Below are positions 4,918 through 43,671 of a stretch of DNA of 64,000 bases, piece by piece. This DNA comes from Candidatus Woesebacteria bacterium (GTDB taxonomy: Bacteria > Patescibacteriota > Microgenomatia > UBA8517). The notes beneath the pieces were generated by a model. It was not told the DNA's origin. It searched no databases and saw only the letters and a list, made by a program, of their open reading frames with translations. The position numbers and the translations under genes were made by a program. The stretch is from NCBI GenBank assembly GCA_016432365.1, contig CP066686.1, positions 474,906-538,905 on the forward strand, given 5' to 3'. The first letter of the stretch is position 1, and each line of letters opens with the position of its first letter.

Positions 4918-6493
4918 ACCCGCACACCAAAAATTTGGTGGTGTGGGTAAATATCCCTTTCTGACGATTCTGTTATTGTCTATCCCTGCTGTTTGGGCAT
5001 TATTTGTACCGGGATATTTTGGCGCCAGCGATGACCTGCATATTGGATGGTTATTTGAGATGAATAGATCACTATCTCTCGGTCAATTTCCTCCCAGATT
5101 TGTTCCGGATCTTTCTTTTGGATTTGGCTACCCTCTTTTTAATTTTGTTTTTCCGTTACCTTTTTACATCGGAGAAATATTCCATAGGTTAGGGTTATCT
5201 TTTGTCGACAGCGTTAAAGCAATATTCCTTATAAGCGTGCCGCTTTCAATGTACTTCATGTATAAGTTTATAAAAGAGTATGCAAACGAGTTCTTGGCGC
5301 TTGCGGGGGCTGTTTTATATGTTTATACCCCGTATAGGGCTACAGACATATATGTCAGGGGGGCAATAGGGGAAATATTGGCGTTTGTTTTCCCTCCACT
5401 AATTGCTTTTGCGATCGCAAAGATAGGTAAAGACAAATCGGCTAAATGGATATGTCTTCTGTCATTGGGTGTAGCGGGACTTATCTTATCTCACGATATC
5501 ATGGCCTATATGTTTATTCCGTTTTTGGCTTTATTTGCGTTGGTACAATGGAAAGGATTACTCAGGTCTGTTTACGGATTTATATTGGGTCTCTTAGTAA
5601 GTTTGTATTTTTGGCTTCCGGCGCTCGTTGAGAGCAAGTTGATGAAGTATGGGACGGGAAATTTTGATTTTATTGATCATTTCCCCACCCTTAGACAACT
5701 GGTCACTCCGTATTTTGGATACGGCGCGTCAGTCCCGGGGCCCTATGACGGAATGAGTTTTTTTATGGGTGCGATAAATGTATTGTTGATTGTCGCCGCA
5801 ATAGTTTTTGTCAAGAAAGGTAGGATAGTTATATATTGGGCGCTTTTTACAATAGCCGTTTCTGTGTTTCTGATGAATTTTAGATCTACTTCTTTATGGA
5901 AAATCATTCCATACTTACCGTACTTTCAGTTTCCATGGAGGTTTTTAAGTTTAACTACGTTTACAACTTCAGTTCTTGTAATATTGTTCGATAAATTCAA
6001 ATTTGCGAAGGCTATTGGTGTCGTAATTATTCTTGCGGCCATCGCTCTTAATTTTACAAATTACAAACCACATGACTTTTTAGGGAGAACTGATGCTTAT
6101 TATTTAAATAGATATATTCCGTTCCCTGTTGCCTCTGCCGAATACCTTAAAACTCAGGAAGAGTATTTGCGCTTACCGGCCGCAACAGAAGTACGACCTG
6201 ATAAAATCTCCCCAAACTCCGGAATGAATACTACATTCAATGTAAGCTATACAAAAGAAACTGTTTATGATTATTACAAATACTATTTCCCTGGATGGGT
6301 GGTTTCAGTTGACGGGAAACAGGTAGAAGTCTACGCCGGCAAACCGTATGGTCAGGTTGAGTTTAAGGTTCCCGCGGGGGAACATCAGGTCGAAGTAGCA
6401 TTTCGGGAAACAAAGTTTAGGGGAATATTAGATATAATTTCCTTGCTGAGTATTCTGGGTATTGTTACAATGCTTGTTAGAAAAAACAAATGA
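4889..6493 (+). CDS. YfhO-like GT-C membrane protein paralog, 534 aa
   Basis: ATG at 4889. Motifs ASDDLHIGWLFEM, YFQFPWRFL and YYFPGWVVSVDGKQVEVY. Overlaps its upstream neighbour by 29 nt. Confidence 0.55.
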   Translation: MQKVKNFLAKPAHQKFGGVGKYPFLTILLLSIPAVWALFVPGYFGASDDLHIGWLFEMNRSLSLGQFPPRFVPDLSFGFGYPLFNFVFPLPFYIGEIFHRLGLSFVDSVKAIFLISVPLSMYFMYKFIKEYANEFLALAGAVLYVYTPYRATDIYVRGAIGEILAFVFPPLIAFAIAKIGKDKSAKWICLLSLGVAGLILSHDIMAYMFIPFLALFALVQWKGLLRSVYGFILGLLVSLYFWLPALVESKLMKYGTGNFDFIDHFPTLRQLVTPYFGYGASVPGPYDGMSFFMGAINVLLIVAAIVFVKKGRIVIYWALFTIAVSVFLMNFRSTSLWKIIPYLPYFQFPWRFLSLTTFTTSVLVILFDKFKFAKAIGVVIILAAIALNFTNYKPHDFLGRTDAYYLNRYIPFPVASAEYLKTQEEYLRLPAATEVRPDKISPNSGMNTTFNVSYTKETVYDYYKYYFPGWVVSVDGKQVEVYAGKPYGQVEFKVPAGEHQVEVAFRETKFRGILDIISLLSILGIVTMLVRKNK

Positions 6494-7842
6494 CAAAAAA
6501 AATCCTCATGGTTCTAACGATAGGAGTTTTAATCCGGTTGTTCTTGGCATTTTCGACATTTCATTCGGATGTCCAGCCGTTCTATTTTGCCGGCGAGGTG
6601 ATTGCCAAAGGAAATGTTTTAAATTTTTACGACTATTTAAGGAACTTGCCTACGCACGACCCGATTTTGAAAATCTATCCTGCTAACCTCTTTAATTACC
6701 CGCCTTTGGTTTACTTTTTCTTGGGCCCGATCAGTTATTTAGTCTCCCTTCCATTCAGCAGAGATCTTCTTCATGGCTTTATATTCAATTTGCCCGCACT
6801 TTTGGGCAATATTCAACTTAATTTTTTGCTACTTATTCTAAAATTTCCGTACCTGCCTTTTGATTTGGGGATAGCCGCTTTACTTTATAAATTTTTCAAA
6901 GATCCCAAAAACAAATTTTTGGCGTTTACCCTATGGATGTTTAATCCTATTAACTTATACGCAACATATATGATGGGACAGTTTGATGTTATCCCCACAT
7001 TTCTGGCCGTTCTTGCGCTTTTTGTGGCTGTCAAAAAAGAAAAATATTTTTTGGCGGCACTGTTTCTGGGATTGGGTGCTTCTTTTAAGATATTCCCGTT
7101 TTTATTTCTTGTACCGCTCGCGTTGATGAAGAGTAAGTGGTTGGATAGAATTAAAATCCTTGGAATCGGAACGTTAACATATCTTGCAACCATCCTACCT
7201 TTCATAAATTCACACGGATTTAGAGCTACTGCCTTACTTGCCGGTCAAACAACAAAAAGTTTGTATGCTACGCTTCCCATATCGGGTGGGGAGGCTATAA
7301 TATTTTTTCCTTTTTTTATACTTTTTACATATATTATTTTCTTTTTCATCAAGGGTACGGCAGACAATCTCTGGCAAAGATTTTTTATGGTGATTTTACT
7401 CTTCTTTGTTTTTACCCATACCCATCCTCAATGGTTTTTATGGTTAACGCCGTTTTTAGTTATTGATTTAATTAAGTCGCGTTTTTCCCATTGGCCGCTA
7501 ACCATTACATTGTTTGTGGTCTGGCTTGGACAGGTGACTTTTTTTGACCCGGGTCTGTCTGTTTGGCTTTTCTCTCCAATTTCTCCAGGCCTCTATGGCC
7601 TGCCTGGTATTTGGACCAATCTGGGAATAAATTTAGACATAAACTTTGCAAGAAGTATCTTACAAACTGTGTTTGTTTCGGTGGCCGCCTATTTTATTTA
7701 TAACAGCATTCAAGAAGACCTCGCAGCTCGCTGCGAGGATGAATTGAACGCCGATATGTCATCCTCCCTTAAGGGGAAACCTCGCACTTTAGTGCGTGGA
7801 GGATATCATAATTATTTCCCCAAAAAAGTTGATAAAAAATGA
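6490..7842 (+). CDS. DUF2029/GT87-like polytopic membrane glycosyltransferase candidate, 450 aa (C-terminal ~40 codons run through a GC-rich palindromic element)
   Basis: ATG at 6490 (ATGA overlap). Motif GLGASFKIFPFLFLVPLAL resembles the K(I/L)YP region of the DUF2029 / alpha-mannosyltransferase GT-C family. Multi-TM. Confidence 0.45.
   Translation: MTKKILMVLTIGVLIRLFLAFSTFHSDVQPFYFAGEVIAKGNVLNFYDYLRNLPTHDPILKIYPANLFNYPPLVYFFLGPISYLVSLPFSRDLLHGFIFNLPALLGNIQLNFLLLILKFPYLPFDLGIAALLYKFFKDPKNKFLAFTLWMFNPINLYATYMMGQFDVIPTFLAVLALFVAVKKEKYFLAALFLGLGASFKIFPFLFLVPLALMKSKWLDRIKILGIGTLTYLATILPFINSHGFRATALLAGQTTKSLYATLPISGGEAIIFFPFFILFTYIIFFFIKGTADNLWQRFFMVILLFFVFTHTHPQWFLWLTPFLVIDLIKSRFSHWPLTITLFVVWLGQVTFFDPGLSVWLFSPISPGLYGLPGIWTNLGINLDINFARSILQTVFVSVAAYFIYNSIQEDLAARCEDELNADMSSSLKGKPRTLVRGGYHNYFPKKVDKK
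7719..7803 (+). repeat. GC-rich multi-hairpin palindromic element (copy A) embedded in the last ~40 codons of gene 6490..7842
   Basis: CCTCGCAGC-TC-GCTGCGAGG (7719..7738). GGATGA-N16-TCATCC (7737..7764). CGCAC-TTTA-GTGCG with TCCTCC/GGAGGA outer pairing (7762..7803). Local GC is far above the surroundings. Confidence 0.4.
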
Positions 7843-9485
7843 TTATCTTAACGGTTTTAACTATCTTGGGTGTAATTTTTCAAGGCGTTGCCATGTTTCG
7901 AAGCGGGTGGCTTTATAATTACGGCGTAGGGTATTTTGGCCCGCTTGCGCGAGACGGAGTATGGCACGAAGCGCTTGCCGGGCAGTTGAATAAAAGTATT
8001 CCTCCCGTTAACCCCGGGCTTGCCGGGCAGGTGTTAACTAATTACCATTATTTTTTCGATATTTTGGTGGCCAAGATCTCGCAATTCACTTTTTTCTCGC
8101 CTCAATTTTTAATTTATCGGTTGTTTCCGGTTATATTTTCCATTCTTCTCGGAATCGGAACGTACAAATTAGCCAACATTCTTTTCAAAGATAAAAAAAC
8201 TGGCCTTTGGGCTGTATTTTTTGCCTATTTTGCAAGTAGTTTTGGCTGGATTGTGAGCCTTGCAAAACACCAACCTTTGGCCGGAGAATCGGCGTTTTGG
8301 GCTAACCAGCCGGTTTCGATGAACCTTAACCCCCCCTATGCAATATCGTTGGTCATAATAATTTTTTCAGTAATTCTTTTAGATTTATATTTAAAAAAAC
8401 CGAACTTTTTAAAAGGTTTTATTTTATCAATTGCGATTGGTTCTCTGGTTGGTTTTAAAGCATATGCTGGCGCAATATGTCTCGGTGCTTTATTTGTTTT
8501 GACGTTAAAGAAAATATTTTTCGACAAAAATTTCAGTCTTCTGCCGGTGTTTATTTTTTCAGCAAGTGTATTCACCATCATCTATCTATCAATTAGTAAG
8601 GGAGCTGCGGGTCTTGTCGGATTTCAACCACTTTGGCTAATCGATACAATGATTGACGCCGGAGACAGGGTCGGTATTCCCAATTTTACCGCAAGAAGAT
8701 TTGCATATTTAGGGGGTCAGAAATGGTTACATTTTGGTTTAATAGAGATCATTGGCCTGTCAATATTTTTTATTGGAAATTTGGGGACGCGTATTGTTGG
8801 ACTCTGGGGATTTAGTAAAAAGTTTTTCAAAGAAGATTTGCACCTATTTATATTTTTGGTGATGGGTGTATCTATTATACCCACGCTTCTGTTCGTTCAA
8901 AAAGGAAACCCTTGGAATATTATTCAATTTTTTTATTATTTCTTATATTTCGCCGGGTTATATGCTGCGAATTCCATAAAAAAGTTTCCGGTATTTCTTA
9001 TGGTTGCGATAGTTCTGATTACACCTATTAGTTCGATCGCTACGTTCCGTAGTTGGCTTTATCCCAACCCCCCGGCTTATCTGTCCGGTATGGAATACAC
9101 CGCCTTAAAATATCTCTCTACTCAGGCAGACGGCACCGTCTTAAAGCATCCGTTCGATAGAGATATGCGTGGTAAATTCAAAGATCCGTATCCATTAAGT
9201 GTTTATGCAGATAATTCGTATGTGTCCGCCTATTCCGGAAAAAGTGTATACATTGAAGACGTTGAGCAACAGATAATCCTTAATACTGATTATGAAACAA
9301 GGGTAAAAAATGCCGACAGGTTTTTTGTTGAAAAAGATTTGAAGTGGTCAAGTAAGTTTTTGAAAGATAACGATATACGTTATGTTTATTTGCCCAAGAT
9401 CTATCAATTGCCAATGGCCGAAGAAGAGTATCCAATAAAAAAGATTTTTGAGAACAATGCTGTTAATATATATAAAGTACAATAG
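7839..9485 (+). CDS. Polytopic membrane protein, probable GT-C glycosyltransferase (GVWHEALAGQ...NYHYFFD family), 548 aa
   Basis: ATG at 7839 (ATGA overlap). Many TM segments. Paralog of the minus-strand gene 13100..15004 (shared DGVWH...L.NYH.F.D, FWA.QP, GNPP blocks). Confidence 0.45.
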   Translation: MIILTVLTILGVIFQGVAMFRSGWLYNYGVGYFGPLARDGVWHEALAGQLNKSIPPVNPGLAGQVLTNYHYFFDILVAKISQFTFFSPQFLIYRLFPVIFSILLGIGTYKLANILFKDKKTGLWAVFFAYFASSFGWIVSLAKHQPLAGESAFWANQPVSMNLNPPYAISLVIIIFSVILLDLYLKKPNFLKGFILSIAIGSLVGFKAYAGAICLGALFVLTLKKIFFDKNFSLLPVFIFSASVFTIIYLSISKGAAGLVGFQPLWLIDTMIDAGDRVGIPNFTARRFAYLGGQKWLHFGLIEIIGLSIFFIGNLGTRIVGLWGFSKKFFKEDLHLFIFLVMGVSIIPTLLFVQKGNPWNIIQFFYYFLYFAGLYAANSIKKFPVFLMVAIVLITPISSIATFRSWLYPNPPAYLSGMEYTALKYLSTQADGTVLKHPFDRDMRGKFKDPYPLSVYADNSYVSAYSGKSVYIEDVEQQIILNTDYETRVKNADRFFVEKDLKWSSKFLKDNDIRYVYLPKIYQLPMAEEEYPIKKIFENNAVNIYKVQ

Positions 9486-9529
9486 CGAACTCAAAACAAA
9501 ATGGAGAATTAATACATTTTTTGAGTTCG
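9486..9529 (+). terminator. Stem-loop (11-bp stem CGAACTCAAAA / TTTTGAGTTCG, ~22-nt loop) immediately after the stop of gene 7839..9485; possible terminator or attenuator, no clean U-tail
   Basis: Read directly. Begins 1 nt after the TAG at 9483..9485. Confidence 0.35.
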
Positions 9530-9553
9530 GTATATAGGAATACTACGTTTGCC

Positions 9554-9584
9554 AAACAAAATGTCAAAAAGTGACATTTTGTTT
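9554..9584 (+). promoter_or_regulatory. 13-bp perfect inverted repeat AAACAAAATGTCA-N5-TGACATTTTGTTT (core TGTCA-N5-TGACA), 12 nt upstream of ATG 9597: candidate operator or RNA hairpin
   Basis: Read directly: 9554..9566 is the reverse complement of 9572..9584. Confidence 0.45.
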
Positions 9585-9596
9585 TAAGATGACTAT

Positions 9597-10766
9597 ATGA
9601 AAAAACTTTTGGTTTTGGCAATTATTTTGAGGCTTTTGGTAGCAGGATTTTTATTTCATCCGGATATTAAAACTATTGACTTCCAGGCTTCTTTCCTAAA
9701 AAAGGGAGTATTTAATATTTATACCTATCTTGTTGAAAATAAGAAATCCCTTACGCTAAAAGATGATTTTGTGTATTTCCCGTTAACATATTTCTCTTTA
9801 GGTGGATATCAATGGGTCGCGTCGCCATTTCTTGGTAAAGGTTTTGATTCTTGGCTTGCTGATGCCGGTTCGTCAACGGTGGTTGAGAATCCGAACATAT
9901 TTAGATATTTGATAGTACTTAAACTGCCATATTTGGTTTTGGATATCCTAATCGCGTTTCTTTTGATGCAGTTTTTTGAAATCAAGGAGGACAAGCGGAA
10001 AGCTTTCGTCTTTTGGCTATTTAACCCATTTACAATAATTATTATTTATGCCTTTTCCAATATCGATATCTTTTCTGTTGTTCTAACAATCCTGTCGTTT
10101 TTAATGATCAAAAAAGAGAAGTTGTTTTCCGCGTCACTCCTTCTGGGTTTGGCCTCCGGTTTTAAATTATATCCGCTACTTTTTATCCCGTTTTTGTTTT
10201 TGGCTGGAAGGAATTTGAAAGAGAAGATCATTCTTTCCATCACCCCGCTCATTACTTTCGGAATAATAATCTTACCTTTTATTTCTAAGGCATTTTTTCA
10301 ATCAGCGTTAGTTTCGGGACTTACTACGGGTATATTTACATCCGACTTTGCAACACTGGCTCTTTCACTCCTATTTTTTTATGCTGCCCTTTTTGATAAA
10401 AAGATTAACCTGCTTAATTATTGGATTTCTATGTTTTTGATTATTTTTTCCTTTGCACTATTTCATATTCAGTGGCTTCTTTGGGTAGCGCCATTTTTGG
10501 TCATATTGTCCGTAAAGAAACCTGAATATTCTTGGTTGTTATTCCTTTTTGGAATAATCGCCTTTGCAATACCGGCTCTTTTCCAGGATAGATATATGAC
10601 AATTTCATTATTTAGGATTTATAGTGTTTGGTTTGACATGCTTCCTACGCCTTTCACTTTTATACAAAAAGTCTACGACCCGGTTAACATCCAGACGGTC
10701 TTTCATTCGATTCTGGCCGCAGGAAGCTTGGTTATGACATATAAGATTTTTAAAGAAGATGAATAA
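9597..10766 (+). CDS. DUF2029/GT87-like polytopic membrane glycosyltransferase candidate, 389 aa
   Basis: ATG at 9597. Motif GLASGFKLYPLLFIPFLFL. Paralog of 6490..7842. Confidence 0.45.
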   Translation: MKKLLVLAIILRLLVAGFLFHPDIKTIDFQASFLKKGVFNIYTYLVENKKSLTLKDDFVYFPLTYFSLGGYQWVASPFLGKGFDSWLADAGSSTVVENPNIFRYLIVLKLPYLVLDILIAFLLMQFFEIKEDKRKAFVFWLFNPFTIIIIYAFSNIDIFSVVLTILSFLMIKKEKLFSASLLLGLASGFKLYPLLFIPFLFLAGRNLKEKIILSITPLITFGIIILPFISKAFFQSALVSGLTTGIFTSDFATLALSLLFFYAALFDKKINLLNYWISMFLIIFSFALFHIQWLLWVAPFLVILSVKKPEYSWLLFLFGIIAFAIPALFQDRYMTISLFRIYSVWFDMLPTPFTFIQKVYDPVNIQTVFHSILAAGSLVMTYKIFKEDE

Positions 10767-41665: not shown

Positions 41666-42664
41666 ATGACAAAAATTCTTAAGGGGAAACGAATATTAGT
41701 TACGGGAGGCACGGGATCCTTTGGACGCATGTTCATCGGTGAAATTCTGAAGTACGAACCCAAAGAAATAATTGTTTTTAGCAGAGACGAAGACAAACAG
41801 GGTATTATGAGGTTGGAATATAAGGATAAACTGGGTATTCGTTTTGTGTTGGGGGACATAAGAGATTTTAGAAGTGTTCGTGAGGCCGTGCGAGGCGTGG
41901 ATATCATCGTTCATGCGGCTGCTCTAAAGTGGATCACAGAGGTTGAATATAATGTTTGGGAAGGTGTAAAAACTAACGTAATTGGCGCAGAAAACATAAT
42001 TGAAGCGGCCAGAGATGAGGGTGTAGAAAAAGTTGTCGCACTTTCGACTGACAAAGCCGTTGAACCGATTAATGCTTACGGAATGGCAAAAGCGCTTCAG
42101 GAGCGACTTATTACAACTGCAAATCTCTACGATGTGGGCAACACCGTTTTTGTTTCTACAAGGTATGGGAATGTTCTTGGATCAAGAGGGTCTGTAGTGC
42201 CACATTTTAAGAAATTAATTTCGGAAGGCAAGCCATTAACTATTACAGACACCGGGATGACCCGTTTCATTCTAACTCTCCAAAAAAGCGTTGAGTTGGT
42301 ATTAACGGCAATGACAGAAGGTGTAGGTGGAGAGGTGTTTGTAAGAAAAATGCCGGGCCATTCCATCATAGATCTTGCCGAAGTCCTTCTGGAGGCCAAC
42401 GGTAAAAATACTAAGAATATTATTAATATGGGAATCCGTCCCGGTGAAAAAATTCATGAAACACTGATTAGTCCGGCAGAAAGTGTGAGAACAGTTGAAT
42501 TTGGAGATTACTATGTAATTTTACCCCAGATTTCTATCCCGGCGGTAGAGAAAAAATATTCAGGTAAAAAGACGTTAAAAGAATTCAGATACGCCTCAGA
42601 CACCACTGAACAAATCGGAAAAAAAGAACTCCGTTCGTTATTAGAGAAAGAGGGTTGGATATGA
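41666..42664 (+). CDS. UDP-HexNAc 4,6-dehydratase, PseB/FlaA1/CapD (PglF-like) family, 332 aa
   Basis: ATG at 41666. Motifs KRILVTGGTGSFG, STDKAV and YGMAKAL. Confidence 0.8.
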   Translation: MTKILKGKRILVTGGTGSFGRMFIGEILKYEPKEIIVFSRDEDKQGIMRLEYKDKLGIRFVLGDIRDFRSVREAVRGVDIIVHAAALKWITEVEYNVWEGVKTNVIGAENIIEAARDEGVEKVVALSTDKAVEPINAYGMAKALQERLITTANLYDVGNTVFVSTRYGNVLGSRGSVVPHFKKLISEGKPLTITDTGMTRFILTLQKSVELVLTAMTEGVGGEVFVRKMPGHSIIDLAEVLLEANGKNTKNIINMGIRPGEKIHETLISPAESVRTVEFGDYYVILPQISIPAVEKKYSGKKTLKEFRYASDTTEQIGKKELRSLLEKEGWI

Positions 42665-42693
42665 AGCTCCCCAACACAATCGGCAGGGTATCT

Positions 42694-42790
42694 TCTCCCA
42701 GCGCTTTGTCGGGAGCGGAATCCCTCCGAAGCGAAACCTCTTCGCTTTCACCCTCAGAGGCTTTAAGCCCGGGGTATTCGCGAAGGGGGA
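42694..42790 (+). repeat. GC-rich palindromic element (copy B) between the PseB-like gene and ATG 42796, sharing the GAAACCTC core and CCTCC...GAGG architecture with copy A
   Basis: CTCCC-N11-GGGAG (42695..42715). GAAGCGAA-ACCTC-TTCGCTTT (42728..42748). CCTCC.../...GAGG flanks. High local GC. Confidence 0.4.
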
Positions 42791-42795
42791 TAAAA

Positions 42796-43671
42796 ATGAA
42801 AATTGGTATAACCGGTGCAACAGGGTTCATGGGCAGGCATATTATTAATAAACTTCAAGGTGAGGGTCACTCAATTAGTGTTCTTGCAATAGAAGAAAAA
42901 CCTACACTACCCAAGGATATAAAGTGGGTACATGGCAATTTAGTTAGCGGGGTAGGCATAGCGAAGTTTTTAAAGGATGTTGAAGTGGTTATTCATTTAG
43001 CGGGAAGAAATTTGCCGCCGGAAGAGGAATTAATTAAAGATAACGTTTTGGCTACCCGCAATCTGGTGATAGAAATGTTAAAGCACCCAATAAAACAACT
43101 CATCTTTACTTCATCGGTAGCTGTTTATGGAAAAGACAAAAAAAGTAAATTTAAGGAAACCGATGAATGTTTCCCGAACACCGAATACGGATTGACAAAA
43201 TATCTCGCTGAAAAGGAGGTTCAATATTGGGTTACAAAAACCGGCAATCCTGCAACTATTTTCCGCCCCTTTAACGTTTATGGTCCTGGAAATTCTAAGG
43301 GGATAATTTACACATTTTACTCAAACATAAAAAACGATGGCAAGGTGATTATTTACGGTGATGGTAAACAAGAAAGAGATTATTTGTATGTCGGTGACAT
43401 AGTTGAAGCATTTTCTACAGCAATACGAATCAAGAAAAGGGGAATTTTCAACTTAGGGGCGGCTAAAAAATATTCGGTTTTAGAAGTGCTTGAAGTTTTC
43501 AAAAAGGTGATGAGGAGAGATATCGAAGTTGACTTTACCTCTACGGAGGAGGGTAAGGTCTTCAACATTAACCAGGATTTGTCCTTGGCGAAAAAAGAAC
43601 TCAAGTGGGAGGCGAAAACTTCATTTGAGAAGGGTTTAAGAAAAACAATTGAATGGTATGAAAAGCAGTAA
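42796..43671 (+). CDS. NAD-dependent epimerase/dehydratase (extended SDR), 291 aa from ATG 42796 (alternative ATGA-coupled start at 42661 would add a 45-aa Ser/Pro-rich N-terminal extension)
   Basis: AAGGGGGA RBS then ATG 42796 gives MKIGITGATGFMGRHI. Catalytic YGLTK. The frame is open back to 42655 (TTG) and 42661 (ATG overlapping the upstream TGA). Confidence 0.7.
   Translation: MKIGITGATGFMGRHIINKLQGEGHSISVLAIEEKPTLPKDIKWVHGNLVSGVGIAKFLKDVEVVIHLAGRNLPPEEELIKDNVLATRNLVIEMLKHPIKQLIFTSSVAVYGKDKKSKFKETDECFPNTEYGLTKYLAEKEVQYWVTKTGNPATIFRPFNVYGPGNSKGIIYTFYSNIKNDGKVIIYGDGKQERDYLYVGDIVEAFSTAIRIKKRGIFNLGAAKKYSVLEVLEVFKKVMRRDIEVDFTSTEEGKVFNINQDLSLAKKELKWEAKTSFEKGLRKTIEWYEKQ

Follow-up and report, generated by a model that had tools for sequence, protein, structure and literature searches.

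A 108-nt, in-frame insertion in a Woesebacteria glycosyltransferase gene is probably a miniature, gene-less relative of IS200/IS605 transposons

Introduction

Palindrome-associated transposable elements (PATEs) lack terminal inverted repeats (TIRs), carry palindromes near their termini, cause no target duplication and are too short to encode a transposase; the class was originally established in Haloquadratum walsbyi (PMC3119063) and has also been described in Geobacillus stearothermophilus (PMC10055086). TTTAT is the experimentally defined transposon-adjacent motif (TAM) of ISGst2, a member of the IS605 family (PMC10055086). A second point of reference is HgcC (RF00062), a high-GC noncoding RNA of AT-rich archaea and an orphan Rfam family, which has been reported to hold the "RE-like tetraloop" (RE, right end) of IS1341-type tnpB 3' ends and of PATEs (PMC4615843). 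Here we describe an element, E1, that lies at 7702..7809 on the plus strand of a 64,000-nt stretch of a Candidatus Woesebacteria genome (GCA_016432365.1, contig CP066686.1, positions 474,906 to 538,905), hereafter called the window, whose own numbering is used throughout. E1 occupies 36 codons, in frame, within gene 6490..7842, and we consider it in all probability to be a PATE, i.e., a gene-less derivative of the IS200/IS605 family. An original prediction, made from the sequence alone, had singled out a hairpin-rich segment at 7719..7803 of this gene and a related copy near 42.7 kb. A literature search, limited in coverage, found no article joining the candidate phyla radiation (CPR), to which this bacterium belongs, with IS605 elements or with MITEs (miniature transposable elements that have inverted repeats).

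Results

Gene 6490..7842 (plus strand) encodes a GT87/DUF2029-like polytopic membrane glycosyltransferase with Pfam matches to GT87 and PIG-M, and its product measures 450 aa vs. ~414 aa in orthologs. A protein search returned ~120 orthologs from Woesebacteria/Microgenomates-type CPR bacteria, which span only ~90% of the 450-aa query. In a protein alignment (A2), 36 residues, NSIQEDLAARCEDELNADMSSSLKGKPRTLVRGGYH, positioned between ..YFIY and (Y/N)YFPK.., were missing from every aligned ortholog (n = 13), and they are conserved in none of the ~120. The same holds at the DNA level, where two syntenic relatives, L005 (93% identical DNA) and L002 (84%), lack exactly 7702..7809; in these empty sites ..TATTTTATTTAT is joined directly to TATTATTTCCCC.., and the window has 108 extra bases at that point. 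E1 is a clean insertion, exactly absent from orthologous DNA and proteins, as the alignment of orthologous junctions proposed in the original prediction could establish. E1 is also carried by a contig in the Logan assembly of SRR12113421, which matches the window with 100% identity across 13.6 kb. The empty sites set the true bounds at 7702..7809, a little outside the 7719..7803 given originally, which places the element near the 3' end of the gene, as had been noted, although in the last ~47 codons rather than the final ~40. It had also been claimed that a hydrophilic tail ends exactly at the next gene's ATG. This was not so: the native C terminus, (N)YFPKKVDKK, is kept downstream of the 36-residue segment, and it is the TGA of the open reading frame (ORF) that overlaps the next ATG (ATGA, 7839-7842), an arrangement unchanged relative to the relatives. 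Just one of the six frames of E1 is free of stops, namely that of the host gene, and composition-matched shuffling of E1 leaves any given frame open in 16% of cases. The insertion was presumably tolerated because 108 nt is a multiple of three and E1 entered in its only stop-free frame. A peptide search for in-frame siblings found no second occurrence of the 36-residue sequence among 5.8 billion proteins.

All three palindromes described for 7719..7803 are present. They read CCTCGCAG-CTCG-CTGCGAGG (7719-7738), GAGGATGA paired with TCATCCTC (7735-7742/7759-7766) and CCTCGCAC-TTTA-GTGCGTGG (7780-7799), the last closed by TATGTCATCCTCC/GGAGGATATCATA. In the predicted folds they contribute to two domains. 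The left-end (LE) domain (7706..7751, plus strand) has an outer stem (7706-7713/7744-7751), an internal loop (GAAGA/ATGAA) and an inner hairpin (7719-7738). The RE domain (7755..7809, plus strand) has an outer stem (7755-7767/7798-7810), a hairpin (7780-7799), and the tail AGGATATCAT, which carries the transposon-encoded motif (TEM) TCAT at 7806-7809 and stops exactly at the insertion boundary, 7809. A repeat search showed that the LE and RE hairpins form a direct repeat of 25 nt, 72% identical (7718-7742 and 7779-7803) and 61 nt apart; it found no TIRs in E1, the extreme ends AACAGCAT.. and ..GGATATCAT not being complementary. Directly 5' of E1 stands the TAM, TTTAT (7697..7701, plus strand), which is host-gene sequence and not part of the element: L005 and L002 already have it at their empty sites, which read ..TATTTTATTT AT followed, across the insertion point, by TATTATTTCC.

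RNA folding of 7705..7815, one of the checks proposed beforehand, gave z = -4.71 for the plus strand (-41.8 kcal/mol) and z = -5.89 for the minus strand (-45.9 kcal/mol), and none of 200 dinucleotide shuffles was as stable in either case; folded as single-stranded DNA, the region gave z = -4.81. When the whole window was scanned in 100-nt steps and folding energy was regressed on GC content, 7701..7800 was the top minus-strand outlier in 64 kb, and 42701..42800 ranked third on the plus strand. The GC content of E1 is 50% (55% in its best 80-nt window) against a 64-kb mean of 37%. This is within the top 1% of 80-nt windows and is equaled at ~20 other places, so that the earlier description of the segment as strikingly GC-rich was correct in direction and overstated in degree.

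No Rfam family matched anywhere in the window at gathering thresholds. A permissive local Rfam scan aligned HgcC to the plus strand of E1 over the full model length with 30.9 bits (local E = 6e-6), a score below the gathering threshold of 50 that we used as a homology lead and not as family membership. The blocks common to E1 and HgcC are GAUGA.UGAAC, after the 5' hairpin, and a 3' hairpin, CC.CGC.CUUUAG.GCG.GGAGGA..UCA; 24 nt of the central region of HgcC are missing in E1. A degenerate RE pattern, CGNNCTTTAGNNCGNGGAGGA, was derived from the part common to the two and searched against viral contigs. It matched at least 120 times (>120), and among the matches listed nearly all read GGAATCCCCGTCCTTTAGGGCGGGGAGGATGTCAA. 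At all 14 viral loci examined, GGAATCCCCGTCCTTTAGGGCGGGGAGGATGTCAA overlaps or directly follows an ORF ending C..C..HDRD.NAA.NI, and two scanned ORFs upstream of it match OrfB_IS605 and Cas12f1-like_TNB. Placed in this way after tnpB, GGAATCCCCGTCCTTTAGGGCGGGGAGGATGTCAA represents the canonical RE of elements of the IS605/IS1341 type. The 3' half of E1, GGGGAAACCTCGCACTTTAGTGCGTGGAGGATATCAT, is in register with it over the stem (8 bp), the loop (TTTA) and the tail (AGGAT.TCA).

The left end was traced in a similar manner, by searching JGI metagenomes with a pattern for the 5' hairpin of E1, CCTCGCAGNNNNCTGCGAGGATGA; the matches listed are those considered here. At one metagenomic locus, L132, a 148-aa ORF is flanked left and right by directly oriented copies of the hairpin CCTCGCAGCTTGCTGCGAGG. 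The ORF was assigned to Y1_Tnp by Pfam (E = 1.8e-35) and to the equivalog transpos_IS200 by NCBIfam (NF033573; 128.6 bits, cutoff 55). The stem of E1's inner LE hairpin is that of both L132 end hairpins, the difference being in the loop only. L132 thus contains an autonomous IS200-type element, with a bona fide tnpA, that has E1's hairpin stem.

A sequence match to the right end also came from an archaeon. In L127 (JACQNI010000040.1, 392..415), a Woesearchaeota metagenome-assembled genome (MAG), a solo hairpin, CCTCGCACTTTAGTGCGTGGAGGAGGTCA, is intergenic in this groundwater DPANN archaeon, and its tail is nearer the HgcC consensus than that of E1. The match hints that E1's type of right end may be shared across domains in the same habitat.

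A sibling of E1 was found in an unrelated context at L129 (1109..1212, minus strand; nhmmer E = 9e-18). It follows GATTAT, runs from ATCAG to GGATGTCAT, and is thereby bounded, like E1, by TTAT on its 5' side and a terminal TCAT. Its right hairpin, TTTTTGCAC-TTCG-GTGCAAAAA, differs from that of E1 through compensatory changes. Directly past the 3' end of the L129 element (TCAT), its first 5 nt, ATCAG, appear again, and together with the AT common to TTAT and TCAT this produces an apparent direct repeat of 7 nt, which may reflect chance or a target preference. Apparent edge repeats have no fixed length in these elements (4 nt in E1, 2 nt in E2, described below, and 7 nt in L129), and two of the four bases in the ATAA repeat of E1 are accounted for by the fact that the target and the end of E1 both finish in AT.

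More distantly, E1 is related to an abundant family of ~150 nt with at least ~100 loci in groundwater and sediment, in which TTTAT is followed by TCTCCTTCGCCGAATACCTCGCAGCTTGCTGCGAGGATGAAGGCGAGGAG...GATACCTCGGAGCTTTGCTCCGAGGAGCTTCAT. Its contigs fall within L128-L247 (JGI, ENA and other metagenomes) and also show the form TTTAT, then TCTCCTTCGCCGAATACCTCGCAGCTTGCTGCGAGGATGAAGG...GAGCTTCAT. Among the matches listed, TTAT precedes 79 of 91 copies, and GAGCTTCAT ends 44 of 49. An additional, nested block (..CGCCCGGCCTTCGCAGCCGAAGCGACTGCTTCGGCGGAGTAGGCA..) is present in some of the copies and is suggestive of modular variants or of insertions within insertions. E1, L132, L129 and the abundant family have a left-end layout in common, consisting of an outer stem, an internal loop (GAA.A/ATGAA) and an inner hairpin, and covariation among family members is seen in the outer stem, where both sides are changed in seven of nine pairs. 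A covariance model for the left-end domain, R1, was trained on 20 copies, none of them from the window. Run against the 64 kb, it recovered E1 (7697-7758, 53.4 bits, E = 1e-13), a match that is partly circular, and, as the best match other than E1, E2 (42796-42732, minus strand, 18.1 bits, E = 0.013); no others scored below E = 0.4.

E2 is a predicted PATE of 129 nt and of the same superfamily, located at 42661..42789 on the minus strand, where TTTAT (complement of 42790-42794) stands 5' of it. Read on that strand, it follows TTTTTAT, starts with CCCCCTTCGCGAATACC.. and finishes with ..AAGATACC..GGGGAGCTTCAT, its end motif being GAGCTTCAT. The blocks TTCGC-GAATACC, TGAA-GCGA-GAG, AAGATACC and GAGCTTCAT are common to E2 and the abundant family. 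E1 and E2 showed no pairwise similarity, and MAFFT alignment in either orientation was uninformative; their relationship is seen only through comparison of minus-strand E2 with the abundant family and through R1. The related copy that had been placed at about 42694..42790 is therefore a real relative, albeit on the opposite strand, with somewhat different bounds, and by architecture and short blocks rather than by overall sequence. E2 is absent in three of three relatives (downstream-gene protein identity of 97%, 82%, and 80%), in which the flanking genes abut or overlap with no spacer. Removal of 42661..42789 joins GGTTGGAT to ATAAAAATGA, which corresponds to GGTTGGATATAACAAATGA in L252. Since it is absent in the three relatives and its removal restores an L252-like junction, E2 is best read as a second, related PATE that inserted independently of E1, in this case between two sugar-nucleotide genes. 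It provides the TGA stop (42662-42664, within the ATGAAG element end) of the dehydratase gene 41666..42664, whose native stop is displaced, and it puts a GGGGG run (AAGGGGG), resembling a Shine-Dalgarno sequence, 7-8 nt upstream of the epimerase ATG at 42796.

A third insertion, E3 (~9482..9596; 115 nt, 29% GC), lies at the next junction downstream of E1, between genes 7839..9485 and 9597..10766. It is lineage-specific, being missing from L005 and L002, where the two genes overlap in ACAATGA. E3 folds stably (z = -6.3) and contains two similar hairpins that form a direct repeat (9494-9520 and 9554-9580) 60 nt apart, a layout like that of E1, with the sequence pattern AAACAAAATGTCA.....TGACATTTTGTTT. 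On the plus strand it is preceded by CAAT and ends in CTAT; on the minus strand the corresponding flank and end are TTCAT and GCTAT. R1 gave no match to E3, and nhmmer gave none among the loci fetched. E3 is probably a PATE-like element, possibly of another type.

The genes of the window are almost wholly those of glycosyltransferases and sugar-nucleotide enzymes, and many encode PMT_2, GT87 or PTPS-related membrane proteins. Orthologs of gene 6490..7842 in other lineages have small insertions of their own in the protein alignment (DLPAGRQEN, FYDEVS and KQGLPFDNG, among P0002, P0008, P0030, P0033, and P0050), and C-terminal extensions occur in P0033 (..KQSLLLRSKQSLASKAGKL) and P0050 (..KQSLLLRSKQSLASQSR).

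Discussion

The insertion status of E1, its boundaries, its hairpin architecture, the homology of its ends to those of IS200/IS605 elements and the existence of a sibling and of related copies together identify a known kind of selfish DNA and not a new RNA signal. We put the probability that E1 is a PATE, a miniature IS200/IS605 derivative that has retained only the LE and RE hairpins, at roughly 0.87. It has no transposase-sized gene, for it is 108 nt long and its only open frame is the host's. Similar palindromes stand near both termini, and the ends are homologous to those of full-length elements, the left to the hairpins of L132 and the right to the motif that follows tnpB. Mobility is indicated by the absence of E1 in relatives, by the sibling in L129 and by E2, which is likewise polymorphic. 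TTAT stands 5' of E1, E2, and L129 and of most related copies, although the edges of E1 keep a 4-nt ambiguity. The original prediction had proposed an inserted element of the REP (repetitive extragenic palindromic) or MITE type; a mobile, 108-nt junction insertion that holds the frame open and has relatives elsewhere is what we found, and the class is what needed revision. The outcome set against that proposal, in which no other copies exist and the tail is conserved as protein, fails twice over, as copies exist and the tail is found in none of the ~120 orthologs.

Several observations weigh against this assignment. ATAA stands at both edges of E1 (7700-7703 and 7808-7811), which leaves room, strictly speaking, for a 4-bp target duplication. 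Pfam detected neither tnpA nor tnpB among the 16 window ORFs scanned, which yielded only glycosylation and polysaccharide genes, and tblastn with TnpA and TnpB found nothing in the window, in the relatives' loci or in the metagenome loci except L132, so that a partner transposase of E1 is putative. Copies of E1 itself are scarce: L129 is the one close sibling among the matches listed, blastn-short and nhmmer searches with E1, E2, and E3 found no second E1-type copy in the window, and the RE 24-mer has a single exact match, that in the Woesearchaeota MAG, among 185,579 species-representative genomes. The HgcC score does not reach its threshold, the model fails on L129 and on the related families, and neither these nor E2 had a relevant Rfam match. 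The training copies of R1 were fished with the pattern of E1's own inner hairpin, which is the source of the circularity mentioned above. Finally, positive GC skew extends over the entire window, the genes lie mostly on the plus strand, and no replication switch separates E1 (plus) from E2 (minus); the orientation of E1 fits the lagging-strand-template bias described for IS608, whereas that of E2 does not.

The same features can be read in other ways. An evolved cis-acting mRNA structure, serving stability or translational coupling between genes 6490..7842 and 7839..9485, had been raised in the original prediction, and it could draw on the very stable fold of the mRNA strand (z = -4.7), on E1's short distance (30 nt) from the start codon downstream and on the occurrence of E2 and E3 at gene junctions as well. 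We regard it as very improbable. Relatives at 82-93% DNA identity keep the identical operon and its ATGA overlap without the element, the conserved parts are transposon ends and TTAT/TCAT boundaries unrelated to the flanking genes, and the junction sites are explained by insertion tolerance and AT-rich TTAT sites. Equally hard to sustain is a mobile element of a different kind, i.e., a REP or REPIN (a paired REP) mobilized by a REP-associated tyrosine transposase (RAYT), a classical TIR-type MITE, or a coding repeat like the Rickettsia palindromic elements (RPEs). A GC-rich palindrome in an AT-rich genome would suit such elements, RAYTs are also Y1 transposases, in-frame read-through is known from RPEs (PMC10969869), and the ATAA at both edges could be a target duplication. 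The hairpins of E1, however, are direct and not inverted, and those on either side of the L132 transposase, which is the IS200 equivalog, are direct as well, which argues against REP/REPIN; a classical MITE moved by a DDE transposase is at odds with the lack of TIRs and the varying edge repeats; and RPE peptides recur, whereas that of E1 is in no other protein of 5.8 billion. Among further identities considered and rejected were an intein or intron (E1 is far too small and has no splicing signatures), a CRISPR repeat (there is no array), a terminator (E1 lies inside an ORF and has no T run) and a fragment of tRNA, 5S or SRP RNA (no Rfam match).

A different question is whether E1 also functions as a guide-RNA gene, that is, as an HgcC-type, omega-RNA-like transcript used in trans by a TnpB encoded elsewhere. 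The 3' flank, AATTATTTCC..., would then act as the guide and TTTAT as the TAM, and TnpB would cleave empty sites so that the element is retained. The HgcC model can be aligned over its full length with the plus strand of E1, the strand from which the operon is transcribed, the RE belongs to the type found after tnpB genes, and PATEs are said to "often encode omega-RNAs" acted on by TnpB in trans (PMC10055086). Such a role is unlikely in our estimate: the HgcC alignment is sub-threshold, lacks 24 central nucleotides and amounts to sequence resemblance, tnpB was not found in the window by either search, and the RE hairpin of L129 differs and has no HgcC match. It would in any case not conflict with a PATE identity, to which it merely adds a function. 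We hold it similarly doubtful that E1 and E2 together are HgcC-type, PATE-borne guide RNAs, carried in the mRNAs of glycosylation operons and used by TnpB in trans, and/or that the host has co-opted the tail, stop and ribosome-binding sequences that they supply. Were the guide-RNA function real, HgcC and the CPR elements would make up one cross-domain class of stand-alone omega-RNA genes.

If E1 is a PATE, its movement may be pictured on the established model of IS608 and ISDra2 and on the account in PMC10055086. A dimer of a Y1 (HUH) TnpA encoded elsewhere would bind the top strand, in single-stranded form, at its two imperfect hairpins, cut 3' of the flanking TTAT (TAM) and 3' of E1's TCAT (TEM), and release a single-stranded circle. 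The circle would be pasted 3' of another TTAT in single-stranded DNA, preferentially on the lagging-strand template, without target duplication. E1 landed, by chance in frame, after TTTAT within the codons for the C-terminal tail of the GT87-like gene, which is thereby longer by 36 hydrophilic residues and retains its last ten together with the ATGA overlap and, presumably, translational coupling. Mobilization by TnpA acting in trans is the step that this scheme presupposes; the insertion would have been recent, and presumably neutral.

In this streamlined CPR genome, a stretch of 64 kb contains at least two recent insertions of miniature IS200/IS605 derivatives, and probably a third. Judging from these two, probably three, recent junction insertions at TTAT-type sites, single-strand transposition seems to operate, or to have operated until recently, in this CPR lineage. 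The structured, GC-rich segment of E1 and the 36-aa tail can be explained as ordinary selfish DNA, which guards against annotating them as a riboswitch-like RNA or a protein domain. The three kinds of change seen here, an in-frame tail, a replaced stop codon and a G-rich stretch before a start codon, illustrate that PATE insertions can remodel gene ends. In addition, the abundant groundwater and sediment family could help to define TAM/TEM pairs for TnpA/TnpB tools.

Compared with described PATEs, E1 agrees in having no TIRs, in carrying palindromes by both ends that resemble full-length IS ends and in lying 3' of TTTAT, like ISGst2; it differs in its CPR (Woesebacteria-like) host, in its length of only 108 nt and in its location inside a coding sequence, where it is predicted to be translated in frame. 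With IS608, ISDra2 and IS200, autonomous elements whose Y1 TnpA carries out "peel-and-paste" single-strand transposition, E1 has in common imperfect, subterminal hairpins that resemble each other at its two ends, a target tetranucleotide 5' of the LE and a related tetranucleotide at the tip of the RE. In IS608 the target and end motifs are TTAC and TCAA; those of E1 are TTAT and TCAT, and E1 has neither tnpA nor tnpB. RPEs are likewise palindromic, selfish repeats of ~100-150 nt that enter unrelated genes in frame and add a peptide (PMC10969869), but they have no sequence relationship to E1, are not known for IS200/IS605-type ends, and have peptides that recur. HgcC aligns with E1 over its full length, and both are GC-rich islands in AT-rich genomes; HgcC is archaeal and intergenic, whereas E1 has a bacterial host, lies inside an ORF and is 24 nt shorter in its center. 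The earlier proposal of kinship between HgcC and the right ends of IS200/IS605 elements and PATEs gains sequence support from these comparisons, and E1 can be regarded, at the level of sequence, as a bridge between the orphan HgcC family and IS200/IS605 ends.

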